DNA of 43,113 nt from a virus (lineage: Duplodnaviria > Caudoviricetes). Shown piece after piece: positions 5,936-19,731 of the stretch. The stretch lies in the IMG/VR virus record IMGVR_UViG_3300017565_000026, positions 1 through 43,113 of that record, one strand, 5' to 3'. The stretch's first letter is position 1; each line of letters starts with the position of its first letter. The notes below the pieces were generated by a model. The model was not told where the DNA came from. It searched no databases and saw only the letters and a list, made by a program, of their open reading frames with translations. Position numbers and translations under genes: made by a program.

Positions 5936-6131
5936 GACCAACCACCTTTCCAGCACGAAGGCGCGAGCCACCTTCGACGGTGACCCGCGCTATCGCATCT
6001 GCTTTTTCAGGATATCGATTGAGGATCCGGCGCGACCTGTCGCAACCATAACGACCGACTGCCTGCCGCCAGCACATAACGCCGACATCACCATCGATGA
6101 TCAGGAATTTCATGCGCCAGCCAGCGATCAT
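5928..6131 (-). CDS. Small hypothetical protein
   Basis: 67 aa, overlaps both neighbours in operon fashion. Confidence 0.45.
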
Positions 6132-6604
6132 GCCCCTGCCTCCAGTCGGCGGACAAGATCGTCCATTACGCGCATAAGTTCGCGAGCTTCCTTGCCGATG
6201 TTCTTGCGCTCGGCGGCATCGATGCGGTTATCCGTCAGGGCTTCGATGATCGCCTGCGAAACATCCATCCCCTCTTTCATGATGCGCATCGCATCTTTTT
6301 CGGAAATAGGGACAGGCGACGCCGCGACACCGCTGCGAATGCCGACCGGCACCAGCTCGTAACCGAGGAGCGCAGCCATTTCCTTCGTAATCGTCGGCGA
6401 CTTGGCGGCGCGGTCAATCTCGATCGCCACGTCGATCGGCGCGAAACTGTCGGTGTTGTCCTCGCCGAAAGACGCGTACTTCGAAAGCTGCGAGGTTGAG
6501 ACACGAGTAAAGTCCAGAATGCGGGAAATGCCACCCGACAACACATATGCACCGTCGGTTGCAGCCTTAAGAGTCCGGCGTTCCGGCTCGGAAATAGTGC
6601 GCAA
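6128..6604 (-). CDS. Phage CII-like regulatory protein
   Basis: Downstream of cro; LKAATD..GG..VSTSQLSKYAS..FAPIDVA and EALTDNRIDAAER..KEAREL pattern of the phage CII family. Confidence 0.65.
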   Translation of the reverse strand: MRTISEPERRTLKAATDGAYVLSGGISRILDFTRVSTSQLSKYASFGEDNTDSFAPIDVAIEIDRAAKSPTITKEMAALLGYELVPVGIRSGVAASPVPISEKDAMRIMKEGMDVSQAIIEALTDNRIDAAERKNIGKEARELMRVMDDLVRRLEAGA

Positions 6605-6733
6605 GAGAACCTCCCTGAAACGTCAAGGAAAAATTTCGGTCAAAGGATTCGGTGAATTTCGCCAGCCCTACCGATAGGACTGTCTGGTCAAGTCAAACAG
6701 GTGGCCCGCAGGCCGGAGAACAACGAGATGAAT

Positions 6734-7204
6734 TCATCGCAAGCCCTCCGAAATTGCTGCCGGGGCGCATCTGGCGTCTCTCAAACCGTGCGCCCCGGCG
6801 CTTCCGTCCGACTGGGAGGAGGAATCGGACGAATGGAAACTGGTTGCAGGGACCGGAATCGAACCGGCGACCTCCGGGGTATGAACCCGGTGAGCTACCT
6901 CTGCTCTACCCTGCTCAGAAATAGCTGGAGCGCCGCTGGGGTTAGCGGGGGGCGACGACGCTCCAGCCTCACCCGCAGAGGAACCGACGGGCGAAAAATG
7001 CGGCTTTCCAAATACGTCAGGTCGCAGCAGGTGGCGGGAAATACCCGTCAAACGCTCCACATCAAGAACCCTCTCAGGCGGCACAACGAACCACTGGTTC
7101 ACCGCCTGCGGTGTGATGCAAAGCGAACGCGCCAAGGAACTGGCACCCCTTGCCCGGTCTTTAGCGGCCTCAAGGGCCATATGCATTTCGTCTCTGTCAG
7201 CCAT
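6734..7204 (-). CDS. cro: Cro-like / YdaS-family HTH regulator with long low-complexity C-terminal extension
   Basis: GASSLARSLCITPQAVNQWFVVPPERVLDVERLTGISRHLLRPDVFG; divergent from cI. The extension overlaps a tRNA and hairpins. Confidence 0.85.
   Translation of the reverse strand: MADRDEMHMALEAAKDRARGASSLARSLCITPQAVNQWFVVPPERVLDVERLTGISRHLLRPDVFGKPHFSPVGSSAGEAGASSPPANPSGAPAISEQGRAEVAHRVHTPEVAGSIPVPATSFHSSDSSSQSDGSAGAHGLRDARCAPAAISEGLR
6802..6838 (-). ncRNA. Cuckoo-type hairpin with CCUCCUCCC anti-SD loop
   Basis: The - strand reads CGUCCGAUU-CCUCCUCCC-AGUCGGACG, a 9 bp stem with the loop at 6814-6822. Confidence 0.6.
6841..6915 (-). tRNA. tRNA-Met(CAT), initiator-like
   Basis: Full cloverleaf: AGCAGGG TA GAGC AGAGGTA GCTC A CCGGG TTCATAC CCCGG AGGTC GCCGG TTCGATT CCGGT CCCTGCA A CCA. 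Unpaired 1:72 (A/A), three G:C pairs closing the anticodon stem, encoded CCA. Confidence 0.9.
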
Positions 7205-7251: not shown

Positions 7252-7983
7252 ATGGACGAATTTATCCACATTGAGTCACATCCCATTATGGATGAGACAC
7301 AACTATCGCAAAAAATTGGCTTAGCCCTTCGCACCGCACGGAAACAGCGCGGGCTTGTTATGCGCGACATTGCGGCAGCCGCTGGCGTTAGCACTGGCGC
7401 AGTCGGCAACTGGGAACGTGGCGCGAACGTCATGTCGATGGAGAATCTTCAAGCGGTTGCATCCTTCCTCGACATTGACCCAATTGCATTGAGCAAGGGA
7501 ACCGTTCGTTACCTGTCCAATCAGAGCGATGTTTCGGATGCGGAAATCGTATCCGACATGACCCACATTGATACCGGCCCACTCGATGTGGAGATACTGG
7601 GCGTAGCCGTAGGCGGCGATGATGGCGACTTCACCTTAAATGGAGAAGTCGCAGGTTATGCTCGCCGACCGGCTGGCATCGCTCATCTGAGAAAAGTGTT
7701 TGCACTTCATGTACTTAGTGACAGCATGGAACCGCGATACGAGCCGGGAGAACTGCTATATTGCGGCGGACGTGACGCGGTGGCTGGTGATGATGTCGTT
7801 ATAGAGACCTTTCCTGCAGAGGGCGAAACAGTAGGAAAAGCCTATATTAAACGCCTTGTTAAACGGTCGAAAACTGAAATTATTTGCAAGCAATACAACC
7901 CTGCTAAGGAACTGGTTTTCGACCCCTACGCTATCAAGAATATGTGGCGAGTGATACCTACGCGCGAGCTTCTCGGCTATTGA
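7252..7983 (+). CDS. cI: CI-like repressor (XRE HTH + S24 autopeptidase); start may be 7288
   Basis: HTH IAAAAGVSTGAVGNWERG; S24 Ser motif SDSMEP and Lys motif YIKRL. Confidence 0.92.
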   Translation: MDEFIHIESHPIMDETQLSQKIGLALRTARKQRGLVMRDIAAAAGVSTGAVGNWERGANVMSMENLQAVASFLDIDPIALSKGTVRYLSNQSDVSDAEIVSDMTHIDTGPLDVEILGVAVGGDDGDFTLNGEVAGYARRPAGIAHLRKVFALHVLSDSMEPRYEPGELLYCGGRDAVAGDDVVIETFPAEGETVGKAYIKRLVKRSKTEIICKQYNPAKELVFDPYAIKNMWRVIPTRELLGY

Positions 7984-8644: not shown

Positions 8645-8798
8645 TGAAGTCCAATTCCACACCGAGGCGGGGTTTTCTCTGCCCGCAAACTACAAGATCG
8701 AAGATCGAGAAACGACATTTCGCATCATGCTGATTGTCTTCGGATGCTGCTTTGCGGCTGGCACCGTACTCGGGTTGCAGATGGCGGGGTTGATATGA
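8637..8798 (+). CDS. Small membrane protein
   Basis: MRDEVQFH..IMLIVFGCCFAAGTVLGLQMAGLI hydrophobic C-terminus; overlaps both neighbours. Confidence 0.5.
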   Translation: MRDEVQFHTEAGFSLPANYKIEDRETTFRIMLIVFGCCFAAGTVLGLQMAGLI

Positions 8799-9928
8799 CT
8801 GGACCGACCGCCATCAGATTCACCATCGAACGGCGCGCACTGCTTCCGGCCTTGTCGGCTGTCAACCGCGCCGTGGAAAAGCGAAACACGATACCTATTC
8901 TCGGCAATGTGTTAATAAAATCGGAAGAAGGTTATCTGACGATCACCGGCACTAATCTCGATATCGAGGTTAAGTCTCGAGCCAGGCAGACCGGCATACC
9001 CGACTTCCCACCATTTACGGTTCCTTCCGCTCTCCTACATGCTGCGGTCAGTAAGTTTCCGGACGGTTGCGAAATCGAGTTCACTGTCGACAGCGCTGCG
9101 GTCACCATTCGGGCCGGACGATCGCGACTTCAGTTGCCGCTTTTACCAGCGAAAGACTTCCCGGCAATGAGTGAAGGCGATTTCACTCATCAATTCGCGA
9201 TGACGAGCAACGATCTGTCACGGGCCATATCCACTGTTGGATTTGCCGTTTCAACAGAAGAAACCCGATACTATCTCAATGGCATATTTATGCACCGCGA
9301 TCAGGACCAGTTGGCATTTGTAGCCACTGACGGGCATCAATTCGCTTATATGAAGATTTCTGCGCCAGAAGGCAGTAGTGATATTCCGGGAGTGATTATC
9401 CCTCGCGGTGTGCTCACGTTGCTCGCCCACTGCGCCAAAGTCGATGGTGAAGTTGCATTCTGTCTGTCAGATCGCAAGATCCGCACTGCATTTCCCGATG
9501 GGGTGACTGTCACGTCGAAACTTGTCGACGGCACCTACCCGGATTATCGACGCATCATTCCTTCCGGACATGACAAGACATACAGCGTTGACCGCGAGGC
9601 ACTGCTTGCCGCCGTTGGTCGTGTGAGCCTGGTGGTGCCGGAGAAATCTGATGCTGTCAGGTTCACTTTTGGATCTGAAGACGTGCGTCTGGAGATCAAT
9701 AATCCAGAAGCCGGTCATATGGAGGATGCTGTCACTCTTTCCGATAGCCATCCAGAAGATACCGTCATCGGCCTAAGCTATCGATATTGCACCAACGTGT
9801 TGAGCGCCACAGATGCGAGCGAGATGCGCTTTTCGCTCAACGATCCCACGAGTCCATGCCTTGTCTCACCAGTAATGGATCCAGAGGCTGGAGATCCTCC
9901 CCTTTTTCTCATTATGCCAATGCGTTGA
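8795..9928 (+). CDS. dnaN: DNA polymerase III beta sliding clamp
   Basis: AVEKRNTIPILGNVLI, TGTNLDIE, STEETRYYLNGI, VATDGH, SKLVDGTYPDYRRIIP, LIMPMR; full three-domain length. Confidence 0.95.
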   Translation: MTGPTAIRFTIERRALLPALSAVNRAVEKRNTIPILGNVLIKSEEGYLTITGTNLDIEVKSRARQTGIPDFPPFTVPSALLHAAVSKFPDGCEIEFTVDSAAVTIRAGRSRLQLPLLPAKDFPAMSEGDFTHQFAMTSNDLSRAISTVGFAVSTEETRYYLNGIFMHRDQDQLAFVATDGHQFAYMKISAPEGSSDIPGVIIPRGVLTLLAHCAKVDGEVAFCLSDRKIRTAFPDGVTVTSKLVDGTYPDYRRIIPSGHDKTYSVDREALLAAVGRVSLVVPEKSDAVRFTFGSEDVRLEINNPEAGHMEDAVTLSDSHPEDTVIGLSYRYCTNVLSATDASEMRFSLNDPTSPCLVSPVMDPEAGDPPLFLIMPMR

Positions 9929-13480: not shown

Positions 13481-14101
13481 TTAGGGAAGTATCTGACCGC
13501 GATGCTGGAAGGCTATATGTGCATAACCATTCGCGGTCCCGTCTTCCCGAATGTAGTCGTCGAGTTCAAGCTCCTCCCCATCAAGATATTCGAGGACTTT
13601 CTCGCGATCCTTGCGTAATTCAGGGTGATTTAATTGGAGCACATCAATCATTACCTCTGCAGCTAGATCGCCAAGTACTGAAGGCACAACTTCGCCGCTC
13701 CGCCGAAACGAGAAACGCGAGGTACATGCGGCATAGATCGGCTCGACATGATTATTCTCATCGAACCAATCATCCTTGACATTGCCACAGGTTGGAGATG
13801 GCGCGCCGTGGGCGTCGCGCTGACCACAACTTAGGAACAGATTATTGTACTCCACTTGGAGTTCAGGAAAGGTAGCCCTGGGTCGGAAATGCTCAATATG
13901 AAACGTCTGCCCAGGGTAGGACAAATCAAGTCGACGTCCGCAGTACACACACAATCCTCGCTGCTCACGAAAAAACTCGCAAACCAATGCTTTTCTTACA
14001 TTCTTATCGAGATTCCTGTATGTGGGCCGCCAATCCTCATTCTCATCACCCAGCCAACTAATAAATTCAGCTGGCGCGGCTTCTTTACGACTGCCCTTCA
14101 T
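13481..14101 (-). CDS. ptuB: PtuB-like HNH nuclease (TIGR02646-type)
   Basis: EQRGLCVYCGRR..HIEHFRPR..YNNLFLSC..CGNVK..IDVLQLN; directly after an ABC ATPase. Confidence 0.8.
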   Translation of the reverse strand: MKGSRKEAAPAEFISWLGDENEDWRPTYRNLDKNVRKALVCEFFREQRGLCVYCGRRLDLSYPGQTFHIEHFRPRATFPELQVEYNNLFLSCGQRDAHGAPSPTCGNVKDDWFDENNHVEPIYAACTSRFSFRRSGEVVPSVLGDLAAEVMIDVLQLNHPELRKDREKVLEYLDGEELELDDYIREDGTANGYAHIAFQHRGQILP

Positions 14102-14103
14102 TT

Positions 14104-15354
14104 CTAACCCCTGAGTTTTTTAAGACGCTTCATCAAAAGCAACAACTCAGGCGGGTCACCTTCAATTTGCTTCTTAATCTGCTCAAACAACAACTCAGCG
14201 TGATCCAAGTTCTTGGTATCTATTGCATCGTTAAATCTGTCAATTAGACGGTCGCTCTCCGGGAAGCGCTCATGAGCACCAAATACGCCTTCTAACAAGT
14301 AGTTACTGGTTTGCCCTTTTGTTTTTAAAGGTATCTTTACTTCATGCCCCCCGTCTTCATTTCTTTCCAATATACGAACATGCTCTCGTTCTATCGATGA
14401 TATTACTTGTGGAGAATGTGTTGTTATTATAAATTGGCATTCCTTGAATACACGGCGCAATGTAACAAGAATTTTACTTTGCCATTCCGGATGGAGGTTC
14501 AGTTCAATTTCATCTATTAATACGATACCTGGTATATCGCTCAACGAAGCGTCTGGCTTCATTAACTGAAGCCGTCGCGCTAAGTCTGCCAGAAGTATAA
14601 TGAAAGATCGCTCCCCCGAGGAAAGCATGCTGACATGAACAGACGATCCGTCCTGCTTGTCAAAATAGAGTCCCACTGGATTGCGTGTCGAGGAATAAGT
14701 GACGCGTTTGAAGCCGTCAATCTCAGTGATGAGTTTTCTTATCGCCTCCAGTTGAGGATCTCTGAATTCTCTATCTAGGTCTCGTACGGTTCTAGCTTCC
14801 TGGGCGTCGTGTCTATCCCACCAAGATTCCAAATGACTAATAGCTTTAAGCTCGCCCTGCAGCGACGTTATGATAGTGGCTTTTTTGTCAACTAGTTCAC
14901 CCGACATACCGCCATTGTTTTCAAACCCTCTGTCCTGTCGATAGTATACCATCAAAGGTCGTTCGACCTTTGCAAAGCCACCACTGTAAGCAGTATTGAA
15001 GAAGTTCAAAAGATCCGGGTTTTCATGCAAACCTTGATGCTCTGAATAGAGGTTTAATTTTTCCGGGAACCCAATTCCTTTAAATTCGCCCCAATTTACT
15101 TTGATGCTGATAAAAGTCGCCTGATCAGGCCGCTTCTTATCTGTTGCGGGGATCCTTGTATCCGGCCCCATCGGCTCAAACTCGTCAGAGCGCCAGGAGA
15201 ATTGTATTACTCTTAACAGGGTGGCGGCGGCATCAAGGACAGAAGACTTGCCTACACCGTTTCGCCCCACAATAATGGTGAGGTCGTGATTGAACTCTAA
15301 GGCTAGCCTGTCAATCCCGCGATAATTTTCAAGGTAGAGCCTATCAATTTTCAT
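14104..15354 (-). CDS. ptuA: PtuA-like ABC ATPase (Septu-type defence)
   Basis: Walker A GRNGVGKS, signature LSSGERS, Walker B IVLIDEIELNLHPEWQ, QFIITTHSP; visibly AT-richer than the flanks. Confidence 0.8.
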   Translation of the reverse strand: MKIDRLYLENYRGIDRLALEFNHDLTIIVGRNGVGKSSVLDAAATLLRVIQFSWRSDEFEPMGPDTRIPATDKKRPDQATFISIKVNWGEFKGIGFPEKLNLYSEHQGLHENPDLLNFFNTAYSGGFAKVERPLMVYYRQDRGFENNGGMSGELVDKKATIITSLQGELKAISHLESWWDRHDAQEARTVRDLDREFRDPQLEAIRKLITEIDGFKRVTYSSTRNPVGLYFDKQDGSSVHVSMLSSGERSFIILLADLARRLQLMKPDASLSDIPGIVLIDEIELNLHPEWQSKILVTLRRVFKECQFIITTHSPQVISSIEREHVRILERNEDGGHEVKIPLKTKGQTSNYLLEGVFGAHERFPESDRLIDRFNDAIDTKNLDHAELLFEQIKKQIEGDPPELLLLMKRLKKLRG

Positions 15355-15687: not shown

Positions 15688-15768
15688 TTACTCCCACTGA
15701 GAGGAATATGTTCCTGAGCGCCCCTGCACTCGGGCGCGGTTCCGCGCATTCTGATTTTGGAGCGTGTC

Positions 15769-17043
15769 TTGCGCCTTCCTGAGACTATCGAGCGTCTGTA
15801 CCTCGACTTTGACGGCTTCTTCGCGAGCGTCGAACAGCAATGCGATCGCCGCCTACGCGGTCGGCCAATCGGCGTTGTTCCCTTCGAAGGGACAGACCGC
15901 ACAGCAGTCATCGCCTGCTCAAAAGAGGCGAAGGATTTCGGCGTAAAAAACGTTATGCCTATCAAGGAAGCAAAACGGCTCTGCCCAGACCTTATCCTGG
16001 TCCCCCAGAAACCCGACCTTTACAGGCGCGCTCATAACGCGCTGCTCTGCGAGATCGAGACCGTCATCGCCATCGACACGGCCAAGAGCATCGATGAACT
16101 GACGTGCGTGCTGGACGACAGCGGCAAGCGAGATCCTGAGCTACTGGCAGCTAGAATCAGAGCCGCGATTTCGGAGAACATCGGCCCCTACATCACCTGC
16201 TCGATCGGTTTCGCGGCCAACCGGCAGCTGGCGAAAATAGCCTGCAAAGCAGGGAAGGAAGAGACAAAGCGTCGAGGCGCTTACGGAAACGGATTGGCAA
16301 TTTGGTGGCCCGCTATCATGCCGGACCCGCTGTTGCGCGTCGAACTGGAGGACATACCCGGCGTTGGATCTAATATGGCGAAGCGGCTTTATCGCAATGG
16401 CGTGTTCACAACCACCCAGCTTTACGCTCTGCAGCCGAAACACATGCGCAAGATCTGGAACAGCGTCAACGGTGAACGACTTTGGTATGCCTTGCACGGC
16501 TACGATATCCAGGCGCCAGCGCAGCAGCGTGGCATGTTCGGCCATGGTCGCGTTCTGCCACCAGAAGCCCGGTCGATCAGCGGTGCCTATGAAATCTCCC
16601 GCCTTCTGCTGACCAAAGCCGCCCGTCGCCTTCGCCGGGAAAACTTCTATGCAGCTGGCCTCTGGCTTTGGCTATCGGTGCGCGACGGTTCATGGTTCGG
16701 CAAACACTATCTGCCGGTCGTGAACGATGACCAAGCTATTCTGTCGGCTCTGCGCTTGCTCTGGAAGCGCGTGCGCGACGATCATCCGCGAGGTGTAACC
16801 ATCTTCCGCGTCGGCGTGACGCTCTATGATTTGTCACCAGCTGGCGAACGGCAGATGGACATGCTGAATAATGACGATGCAGTGCGCCAAAAATGGGAAA
16901 AGGCAAACAACGCCGTCGATACGCTAAATACCAAGTATTCCGGCACCATCGTCAGTATGGGCGAGTGGAAGCCGCCAACTGGCGGGCACGTCGGCGGTAA
17001 GATCAGTTACACTCGCATCCCGTCGGCTGAGGATTTCTGGTGA
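15769..17043 (+). CDS. Y-family translesion DNA polymerase (DinB/UmuC superfamily)
   Basis: YLDFDGFFASVEQ, SIDE, SIGFAANRQLAKIA, DIPGVG; clamp-binding-like QMDML. TTG start has a GGAG RBS. Confidence 0.92.
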   Translation: MRLPETIERLYLDFDGFFASVEQQCDRRLRGRPIGVVPFEGTDRTAVIACSKEAKDFGVKNVMPIKEAKRLCPDLILVPQKPDLYRRAHNALLCEIETVIAIDTAKSIDELTCVLDDSGKRDPELLAARIRAAISENIGPYITCSIGFAANRQLAKIACKAGKEETKRRGAYGNGLAIWWPAIMPDPLLRVELEDIPGVGSNMAKRLYRNGVFTTTQLYALQPKHMRKIWNSVNGERLWYALHGYDIQAPAQQRGMFGHGRVLPPEARSISGAYEISRLLLTKAARRLRRENFYAAGLWLWLSVRDGSWFGKHYLPVVNDDQAILSALRLLWKRVRDDHPRGVTIFRVGVTLYDLSPAGERQMDMLNNDDAVRQKWEKANNAVDTLNTKYSGTIVSMGEWKPPTGGHVGGKISYTRIPSAEDFW

Positions 17044-17989: not shown

Positions 17990-18015
17990 CTTTAGTTGTG
18001 CCAGGAGTATGCGAG

Positions 18016-18906
18016 ATGGTTGCACCAAGAGCGAATTGGAAGGGCTATATCAAGTTCGGAGAGGTTTCTTGTCCAGTAGCTTTGTACACCGCCGCGTCTA
18101 CTTCCGAGCGGATTTCATTTCACACAATCAACCGCAAAACCGGCAACCGGGTCAGAAGAGAATTCGTCGACAGTCAGACCGGCAAACCCGTTGAACGTGA
18201 AGATCAGGTCAAGGGATACGAAGTGGATGATCACCGATACGTGGTTCTTGAGCCCGATGAGGTAGCCGCCGCGATCCCCGAAAGCGACAAGACCTTGCAG
18301 ATCGAAGCCTTTATCCCATGCGACCAGGTTGATACTGCTTATTTCGACAAGCCCTACTATCTCGCTCCCGATAAGATGGGCACGGAGGCGTTCGTCCTGC
18401 TTCGTGATGGCATGAGGAAGGCCAAGGTGGCCGCCATAGCGCGCACCGTTTTATTCCGCCGCATGCGAACGGTGCTTATCCGTGCCCACGGAAAGGGGCT
18501 GACCGCTTCCACGCTCAATTTCGATTACGAGGTGCGTTCTGCTCAAAAGGCTTTCGATGATGTGCCGGATATCAAGATTGAAGGCGAAATGCTGGAGCTA
18601 GCGGAACACATCATCGGCACCAAGGCTGGCGAATTTGACGCCAGCAAATTTGACGACCGATATGAGGAGGCTGTGGCCGAGCTGGTCAAGGCAAAGATCG
18701 AAGGTAGAACCCTTCCTAAGAAAAAGGCGCCCGTCGCGTCCAAGCCGAGCGATTTGCTGCAGGCTCTCCGCGAAAGTGCCGGTCTTGGCGCCGCGAAGAC
18801 GAAGCGCACGGCAGCTAATGCGGATCGTGCCCCAGCTCGAAGAAAGGCAGCCAAAGCTGCCACAAATTCCAGAAAGTCTGCTTCCCCCACGAGACGGGCA
18901 AGTTAA
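18016..18906 (+). CDS. ku: Ku protein (NHEJ end-binding), copy 1, with basic tail
   Basis: PRANWKGYIKFGEVSCPVALY, VKGYE, YFDKPYYLAP, FDDRYEEAV, DLLQALRES. Confidence 0.95.
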   Translation: MVAPRANWKGYIKFGEVSCPVALYTAASTSERISFHTINRKTGNRVRREFVDSQTGKPVEREDQVKGYEVDDHRYVVLEPDEVAAAIPESDKTLQIEAFIPCDQVDTAYFDKPYYLAPDKMGTEAFVLLRDGMRKAKVAAIARTVLFRRMRTVLIRAHGKGLTASTLNFDYEVRSAQKAFDDVPDIKIEGEMLELAEHIIGTKAGEFDASKFDDRYEEAVAELVKAKIEGRTLPKKKAPVASKPSDLLQALRESAGLGAAKTKRTAANADRAPARRKAAKAATNSRKSASPTRRAS

Positions 18907-18918
18907 GGAAAATTTGAG

Positions 18919-19731
18919 ATGGCCGTTCGTCCATACTGGAAGGGATACCTGAAGCTCTCGCTTGTCACCTGCCCTGTCGAAATGATGCCCGCGACTTCGG
19001 AAAGTGAGAAGGTCCGCTTTCACACCTTAAACCGACAGACCCAAAACCGCGTTATCAGTCACTATGTCGACGCGGTGACCGGCAAGGAAGTCAGGGAGGG
19101 AGATGAGGCCAAAGGCTACGAGCGAGGAGAAGGTGAATATGTTCTCCTCGAAGAGGAAGAACTGGAGAATGTTGCGCTCGACAGTACCAAGACGATCGAC
19201 GTTGAAATGTTCTCGCCTCGTGAAAGCATCGGGTGGATTTGGCTCGACACCCCCTACTATCTGTCTCCTAGCGATCCCGTCGGCGAGGAAGCTTTCGCGG
19301 TTATTCGCGAGGCTATGAAAGCTGAGAACAAGGTTGGCATATCGAGGTTGGTGCTGTCTCGGCGTGAACGGGCCGTTATGCTTGAGCCGCGCGGCAAAGG
19401 GATAGTTCTCTGGACACTGCGCTACGGCGACGAAGTGCGTGACGAAGACCTCTATTTTGAAAGGATTGGCGAGGAGAAGGCCGATCCGGACGCACTGCCG
19501 CTGATAGAAAAGTTCATAAAAAAGCAAACCAGGGACTGGAAGCCCGACCTGGTCCACGACCCGGTTCAGGAGCGCCTGCTTGACATCATCGCAGCCAAAA
19601 AGAAGACACTAAAAAAGCCGACGAAAGCAAAGCCGAAAGCGTCCGACGCCGAACCGCAACGTGGTAACGTGATCAACATCATGGACGCTTTGCGGAATTC
19701 GTTGAAGAACGAGACTCGAAAGTCGAAGTGA
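18919..19731 (+). CDS. ku: Ku protein, copy 2
   Basis: RPYWKGYLKLSLVTCPV, KGYE, DTPYYLSP, TLRYGDEVR, NVINIMDALRNSL. Confidence 0.95.
   Translation: MAVRPYWKGYLKLSLVTCPVEMMPATSESEKVRFHTLNRQTQNRVISHYVDAVTGKEVREGDEAKGYERGEGEYVLLEEEELENVALDSTKTIDVEMFSPRESIGWIWLDTPYYLSPSDPVGEEAFAVIREAMKAENKVGISRLVLSRRERAVMLEPRGKGIVLWTLRYGDEVRDEDLYFERIGEEKADPDALPLIEKFIKKQTRDWKPDLVHDPVQERLLDIIAAKKKTLKKPTKAKPKASDAEPQRGNVINIMDALRNSLKNETRKSK

Follow-up and report, generated by a model that had tools for sequence, protein, structure and literature searches.

The interval between cro and cII in an alphaproteobacterial temperate phage is apparently part of a conserved, translated and so far undescribed leader, in which an initiator-type tRNA gene and a hairpin exposing an anti-Shine-Dalgarno (anti-SD) loop are read in frame with cro. 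We explain this arrangement best, with a probability of roughly 0.45, by a cis-acting anti-SD gate that would operate under translational coupling and be cut loose by tRNA processing. Annotations of temperate phages of alphaproteobacteria treat the cro-cII interval as intergenic or assign it to over-long cro genes. In our literature search, which covered mainly open-access papers without their supplements (the cuckoo tables could list prophage loci), neither a tRNA within cro nor a leader of this kind came up in a title or abstract.

The phage and the sampled loci

The window, that is, the whole stretch of DNA analysed here (43,113 nucleotides), is one virus record in full and belongs to a temperate phage of alphaproteobacteria with the cI-cro-cII layout. 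The nearest named relatives of its cII are from Brucella tritici, B. anthropi and B. intermedia, followed by Rhizobium, Agrobacterium and Ensifer, and GapR-like, methylase, replication and NusG-like genes lie downstream of cII. The immunity genes are:

7252..7983, plus strand: cI-like repressor, divergent from cro (Pfam HTH_3 and Peptidase_S24; PHROG repressor families)
6734..7204, minus strand: cro, 156 aa with a long C-terminal tail; no internal stop in the translation, P22_Cro/YdaS-type HTH in the N-terminal part
6128..6631, minus strand: cII-like gene (6128-6604, TTG start; PF06892, phrog_101) with its SD hairpin

Elsewhere the window carries a low-GC, defence-like pair of an AAA ATPase and an HNH protein (13481-15354, minus strand), and two tandem Ku-like genes (17998-19731), a DNA polymerase family gene (15757-17043) and a processivity-clamp-like gene (8744-9928, plus strand) occur together in this one prophage.

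Eighty viral loci were fetched through cII similarity, blind to the motif; 34 of them have a tRNA-Met upstream of cII, 24 belonging to the lineage of the window and 10 to a second lineage (L235-L250). By "lineage", our own label, we mean the window and the 24 viral loci with the same trailer type (n = 25). As controls served 120 viral tRNA-Met genes among the matches listed, chosen by tRNA pattern only and hence blind to the motif, and, for the open-frame comparison, 75 motif-blind viral tRNA-Met genes with enough flank, again among the matches listed. A pattern scan of the genome collection gave at least 121 loci, chiefly host-type tRNA-Met genes, which were left out as support; the frame is open in 9 of 77 such loci among the matches listed.

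A tRNA gene read in frame with cro

The tail of cro, whose start ATG is at 7204, is encoded by module 1, the tRNA gene and two hairpins (HP1 and HP2); a 14-codon ORF begins at an ATG that shares bases with the TGA of cro:

6923..6994, minus strand: module 1, an upstream two-hairpin module, which folds and resembles HP1+HP2 in layout and stem sequence
6841..6915, minus strand: initiator-type tRNA-Met(CAT) (ARAGORN and Rfam, 61 bits), CCA encoded, anticodon in frame with cro
6835..6840, minus strand: GUUUCC, candidate RNase E site, directly past the CCA
6803..6833, minus strand: HP1, 9-11 bp stem with the anti-SD loop CCUCCUCCC at 6814-6822
6759..6799, minus strand: HP2, 11-bp GC-rich stem with a variable loop that lacks the motif
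6693..6749, minus strand: SD GGAGGG (6744-6749) and the coupled 14-codon ORF MNSSRCSPACGPPV (6693-6737), the predicted cis target of HP1

The first-pass annotation had pictured the hairpin as part of a plain tRNA trailer, a picture that was not supported: hairpin and tRNA sit inside the cro frame, and the closest site with which the hairpin is predicted to pair is the ribosome-binding site (RBS) that follows in cis. In all 25 lineage loci the frame contains no stop over the 270 nt or more that precede the tRNA, and it closes only where its stop codon overlaps or adjoins an ATG or GTG. In favour of the cis gate, the open tRNA frame is held across eight length classes, including insertions of 78-141 nt, and all gaps in a 17-row alignment are multiples of three. 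Twenty-two of the 25 loci are direct Cro fusions, comprising 8-10 Cro sequence types as sorted by eye, and in the other three (L203, L204 and L216) the chain is carried by inserted ORFs; the tRNA gene stays in frame beneath many exchanged immunity types. Taking a one-in-three chance per junction, we estimate the probability of this outcome at about 1e-4. The frame is open in 23 of 32 cII-selected loci and in 2 of the 75 motif-blind viral tRNA-Met genes (among the matches listed), one of these two belonging to the lineage. In the second lineage, the end of cro reads EAAE-stop, with an ATG overlapping the stop; the ORF that starts there, coupled to cro and 107-309 codons long, contains the tRNA in the frame seen in the lineage of the window. 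The same holds for gp13 of Mesorhizobium phage vB_MseS-P1, an ORF likewise coupled to the stop of cro, and this phage also has a CCUCC loop. Leader inserts of 400-900 nt, with the sense frame open throughout, occur in L007, L009, L010, L012, L206, L216, L232 and L246, and their translations resemble antisense readings of other genes.

That the tRNA is an initiator, as had been proposed, holds: read from the sequence, tRNA-Met(CAT) at 6841-6915 has a CAU anticodon, unpaired A1/A72, A11-U24, three G-C pairs closing the anticodon stem and the CCA end, and thus all the features that we take to mark tRNA-fMet (unpaired 1:72, A11-U24, three G-C pairs). It was the sole match in an Rfam scan at gathering level. 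Its anticodon loop UUCAUAC (6877-6883, minus strand) is a frequent form among these phage tRNAs and may matter for resistance to anticodon nucleases. GTTT stands at the tRNA end in 25/25 lineage loci, compared with 4/120 motif-blind genes among the matches listed. GUUUCC is also the reported RNase E cleavage site at the 5' end of CcsR1 (PMC8034643), and this match with the GUUU(C) run makes an RNA released from the 3' side of the tRNA plausible.

Structure and conservation of the hairpins

A 9 bp stem exposing exactly this loop about 10 nt after the CCA had been described in the first-pass annotation, and our analysis confirms it: the core stem of 9 bp begins 10 nt past the CCA (6831), two U-G pairs lengthen it to 11 bp, and CCUCCUCCC forms the loop. 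Folding z scores are -2.34 for 46 nt and -3.03 for 101 nt that include the second hairpin (6759-6799), with the caveat that, once the downstream RBS is included, the lowest-energy predicted fold opens HP1 and pairs it with the RBS. The 9-mer matches once in the 43-kb window and at least once in 27 of 100 shuffles, so that its presence alone is not beyond chance. Its position is: among the matches listed, the 9-mer lies in the tRNA trailer of 5/25 lineage loci against 1/120 motif-blind ones, and CCTCCC lies between tRNA and stop in 23/25 against 4/120.

Across 17 aligned modules, 93.5% of cells pair, compared with about 40% in slid controls (the shuffle control ignores kinship). For HP2 the figure is 98%, with both-sided changes in three pairs, and the HP1 stem shows one both-sided and three one-sided changes while the loop core CCUCCC stays. 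The loop variants CCUCGC and CUUCCC occur; at the RNA level CCUCCC is kept in 23/25 loci while the stem varies, so that the refuting condition named in the first-pass annotation, a loop that is not conserved, did not apply. As the loop motif is read in two frames (SSSQ and ILP/LLP), the constraint is on RNA and not on peptide.

The hairpin had also been tied to the tRNA, a dependence that was not borne out: modules of the HP1-HP2 type are found without tRNA in L215 and L218 and 140 nt from the tRNA in L217, and the loop core recurs in unrelated stems and tRNA-less leaders (L226, L230, L261; Sinorhizobium phage phi3LM21). Module 1, whose first loop carries UUCCUCU, was found in 22/24 loci and is absent from L202 and L216; U-rich linkers precede each module, and the module is doubled in L212/L213. 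In the second lineage CCTCC lies further down in 10/10 loci. When loops were counted within 260 nt of 51 non-redundant leaders, Pro-Pro codons excluded, CCUCC was the commonest 5-mer, occurring in 16/51 loci, whereas six shuffled sets gave 0-3 and cII coding DNA gave 1; the 35/51 leaders in which no CCUCC loop was found within these 260 nt speak against the cis gate.

Related trailers are seen in other phages. In L002, L005, L028 and L041, unrelated phage tRNA-Met genes are followed by perfect hairpins with CCUCC loops, and L002 and L005 have a coupled start in frame, 15-19 codons ahead of the anticodon. A pattern scan for any tRNA end followed by CTCCTCCC, motif-selected and serving as a lead only, gave 67 hits, 52 of them on ARAGORN tRNAs, of which 22 are tRNA-Met. 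CTCCTCCC stands 6-13 nt past the CCA of solitary tRNA-Gly, -Thr, -Tyr, -Trp, -Gln and -Met genes (L014, L021, L023, L026, L034, L046, L051, L068, L069, L071, L072 and L074), often unpaired and followed by terminator-like hairpins, and these solitary tRNAs possibly form a wider class with anti-SD trailers.

Predicted partners of the loop

When the part of the window that runs from HP1 as far as the stop is folded, the 5' arm and loop of HP1 pair with the SD and AUG in the predicted structure of lowest energy (-48.5 kcal/mol), and the alternative predicted fold, with HP1 closed and the RBS free, reaches -44.4 kcal/mol. The predicted probability of loop-SD pairing in the window is 0.81, or 0.74 with the tRNA attached. 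In L012 loop and SD change together, which favours the cis gate. Against it, this long-range fold dominates in 6/12 sequence types, five being near zero with the RBS held by local hairpins; L215 and L218 keep the loop before a weak downstream SD; and cognate HP1-RBS pairs exceed mixed ones weakly (p = 0.0045 for 22 redundant pairs, p = 0.053 for 12 types). It also counts against the gate that any anti-SD pairs with any SD.

A candidate second target of HP1, put forward on predicted duplex energies, is:

6129..6153, minus strand: RBS of a 67-codon gene after cII, the best non-self complement of the HP1 loop and 3' arm in the window

The duplex is predicted at -31.5 kcal/mol, the next site among 8,616 windows at -28.1, and it ranks top of 44 start regions. 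The cognate test gave p = 0.003 on 14 types, confounded by kinship, and the complement is missing in L013 and L201, both of which share HP1.

Coupled reading frames towards cII

In the window, the chain of coupled ORFs is unbroken from cro to about 90 nt ahead of cII. In 68 of 71 loci (cII identity of about 35% or more) a leader stop lies 57-110 nt before cII, and 67 of these 68 stops can be traced upstream, from one stop/start overlap to the next, as far as an ORF of 60 codons or more; such links persist across inserts of several hundred bases. When 66 presumed cro ORFs were compared with PHROGs, 33 matched regulator or DNA-binding families, 17 matched families of unknown function only and 16 had no match, so that 33/66 in the last two classes weigh against the cis gate. 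A looser test flagged 18 of 91 genome loci, with 0 among the 30 of them that came from a Rhodobacterales-type search, and the trait thus marks a subgroup. Of 301 genomes sampled around G003 (a Neotabrizicola record) from its order, 185 have a single weak match to cII, without a PP-stop leader (L460-L488), which suggests a domesticated chromosomal gene.

The leader ORF ends on Pro-Pro in 55 loci (in some with 1-11 further residues) and on G-C/S-G in 13, and a PP-stop stands at the leader end in 65/71 loci versus 0-8 at shifted positions. An in-frame sense stop is common to all leader ends, whatever their class. Leader ORFs of 10-309 codons with CGPP-stop or a like ending roughly 90 nt ahead of cII, half of them also with an antisense SD and ATG, occur in the window and in L221-L262, L398, L400, L401, L428, L431-L433, L436, L437, L439 and L450-L453; in L229 and L257 Cro itself ends in this way. 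CGPP varies at third positions only in 30 distinct sequences, and 34/55 PP-class ends coincide with an antisense SD followed by 5 nt and ATG. Stalling at a Pro-stop has been reported (bioRxiv 2021.08.16.456513), and a Pro-Pro-stop arrest peptide was the reading favoured at first; it was then ranked lower because in these 34/55 an antisense RBS and ATG are spelled by the very same letters, although the window keeps CGPP without the antisense ATG. By eye, no second module of a put/nut-like antiterminator was seen after cI.

The cII SD lies inside a conserved short hairpin or inverted repeat (6610-6631, minus strand). Just upstream of it, the aligned leaders suggest a convergent promoter:

6652..6680, plus strand: candidate CII-activated establishment promoter (pE/pRE-like), from columns of the aligned leaders

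The candidate has a weak -35 (6652-6657) and a -10 (6675-6680), 17 nt apart, and is directed through the leader to cI. In 32 aligned leaders its TA columns are invariant and its CAC-GAA columns conserved; a sigma-70 scan did not find it.

A proposed cis gate and what it may do

The proposed cis gate starts from the observed open frame, stop/start overlap, conserved loop, GUUU run and ORF chain, and from the two predicted folds. In the early lytic transcript HP1 would keep the next RBS closed unless ribosomes arrive from cro; on their way through the tRNA and the two hairpins these would melt the gate, and they would start anew at the AUG that overlaps the cro stop. Continuous translation would presumably shield the transcript from Rho, keep it ribosome-covered up to the convergent establishment promoter and strengthen it against that promoter. 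On a poorly translated message, the tRNA would be expected to fold and to be excised by RNase P and by RNase E at GUUUCC. Its excision would break the ORF chain, leave a stop-less cro message, supply an initiator tRNA and free an HP1-HP2 RNA with its own RBS shut, which may also act in trans; removal of the tRNA would then act as a switch on the route to the lysis/lysogeny gene cII. The steps have precedents in IsrK-orf45-anrP (see below) and in the coupling of ribosome and RNA polymerase in transcriptional interference (bioRxiv 2020.09.23.310730), which argues for the cis gate.

More speculatively, the in-frame initiator tRNA and the anti-SD gate could together form an initiation sensor on the lysis/lysogeny switch, an idea that we consider possible but rather doubtful. 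With charged initiator tRNA ample, ribosomes would pass and translation would be relayed to cII and the replication genes; with initiation failing (starvation, tRNA-fMet-cutting toxins), the tRNA would fold, be excised and refill the pool, Cro would be tagged by tmRNA, the relay would shut and the freed hairpin RNA would silence more RBSs. If the gate model is true, one RNA stretch would be either mRNA or tRNA, tRNA processing would be an input to a developmental decision, and there would be a reason for a single phage tRNA-Met beyond codon supply or nuclease escape. Cuckoo-type anti-SD loops would likewise extend from host sRNAs to phage leaders.

Alternative explanations

The HP1-HP2 module could instead be freed by RNase E and act mainly in trans, as a CcsR-like sRNA on RBSs of phage or host, a role that is compatible with one in cis and that we judge possible without thinking it probable. 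The GUUU at the tRNA end of 25/25 loci, the U-rich linkers and the duplication in L212/L213 resemble the RNase E-cut CcsR1-4 array, loops are exposed in tRNA-less loci, and the post-cII RBS is the best non-self complement in the window, with the cognate p = 0.003 on 14 types; alpha-r14 loops repress targets in such a manner (PMC10746234). However, the module has neither a terminator after it nor a promoter of its own before it, it has one motif loop as opposed to the 2-4 of cuckoo RNAs, and the predicted fold of the window buries this loop on the cis RBS. In addition, L013 and L201 share HP1 without the post-cII complement, the p value is confounded by kinship, and the conserved frame is left unexplained. 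Alternatively, the C/U-rich loops could be Rho loading or protein-binding sites of a tR1-like terminator, masked by translating ribosomes, with an incidental likeness to an anti-SD; the ORF chain would fit protection from Rho equally well. Lambda tR1 lies between cro and cII, as the leader does, and C+U amounts to 62% in leader loops and 50% in cII coding loops, which are points for this explanation. We regard it as unlikely, since the enriched words are CCUCC, UCCUC and CUCCC and not any pyrimidine run (UUUCC 6 versus 1-4 in shuffles), and the folding of the leader is strong, with a median z of -3.1 over 40 loci, a state that Rho disfavours.

It is still less likely that the hairpin is a mere processing or stabilising structure for the tRNA and the downstream message, its loop kept by descent. 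The lineage is closely related, the exact 9-mer occurs in 5/25 loci only and the variants CCUCGC and CUUCCC exist, all of which would suit such a structure, but the loop core survives stem changes and reappears in unrelated stems and in tRNA-less leaders. Least probable of all is that the complement, GGGAGGAGG, and not the loop has the function: on an antisense establishment transcript it would serve as an SD or hold ribosomes. In the window GGGAGGAGG is followed by an ATG (6833) from which 127 codons stay open on the plus strand, up to 36 nt from cI; a convergent promoter is also likely, and HP1 folds nearly as well on the other strand, antisense being lower in 6/24. Yet an ATG is present in 4/24 loci only, at a spacing of 10-14 nt and with ORFs of 16-127 codons whose ends are not shared; an antisense ATG or GTG at 4-10 nt is found for 0/17 loop motifs versus 17% in the background; and the sense strand folds better in 44/51 whole leaders (coding control 26/51). 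A usable antisense SD in the complement of the HP1 loop was rejected on these counts of starts (0/17 and 4/24). We retain the cis gate as the best explanation.

Comparison with known systems

Membership of the hairpin in the cuckoo family, as first proposed, was not upheld: it has one motif loop only, and RF02344 (ar14), a model that assumes three hairpins, scored 20 bits in the Rfam check, below the gathering cut-off of 58.8 (E = 0.21). Like the cuckoo/alpha-r14/CcsR RNAs (RF02344; PMC4615179, PMC8034643, PMC10746234), the phage element has CCUCCUCCC in a hairpin loop on a variable stem, adjacent-hairpin modules, at times repeated, behind a small-protein gene, a GUUUCC 5' edge and an alphaproteobacterial host. 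Cuckoo RNAs are described as 2-4 adjacent hairpins with the motif in each, intergenic and typically beside a DUF1127 gene (CIN1) (PMC4615179). HP1-HP2, unlike these, has the motif in one loop per module, with the exact 9-mer a minority form, and it lies inside an ORF, in a prophage cro-cII leader whose neighbours are cI, cro and cII, without DUF1127.

A scan of the window leader against Rfam gave no match to families of the P4 CI/P1 C4 type. The C4 RNA of P1 is an immunity leader RNA of the same kind as P4 CI. In P4, as summarised in PMC4825925, CI is a small RNA processed from the leader that pairs with its own transcript and shuts downstream genes, in which it is like the proposed phage element; unlike it, CI comes from an untranslated leader, whereas the unit processed in the phage would be a true tRNA with its trailer. 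Phage 186 pR/pE (PMC7708051) and lambda cro-tR1-cII share with the window the cI-cro-cII layout, a PF06892-type CII and a likely convergent CII-activated promoter; they differ in the cro-cII interval, which here is spanned by ORFs coupled one to the next, a conserved arrangement that overlies arrays of hairpins and, optionally, a tRNA. For phage 186, pE was judged not to interfere significantly with pR (PMC7708051). Solitary initiator-type tRNAs of temperate phages have been described (PMC10264068; the solitary tRNA-Met of phiLM21-like prophages, PMC12429752), and here too an altered anticodon loop could resist anticodon nucleases; in the accessible parts of both papers they are treated as free-standing genes, and an in-frame position within cro is not mentioned.

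In Gifsy-1, the IsrK-orf45-anrP region (PMC4825925) is a prophage leader that is both structured RNA and message, with two alternative folds (predicted in our phage), and its upstream ORF, conserved in nucleotides and not in amino acids, has a stop that forms AUGA with the following start, which the ORF controls through translational coupling. The phage leader differs in that its upstream ORF is Cro, its gate is an anti-SD loop, it holds an intact in-frame initiator tRNA, and its downstream gene is cII and not an antirepressor; no relation in sequence was seen. As a comparison of how the two may work, IsrK-orf45 is the closest analogue, for the phage leader likewise has an upstream ORF with a variable peptide and a stop overlapping the next start.
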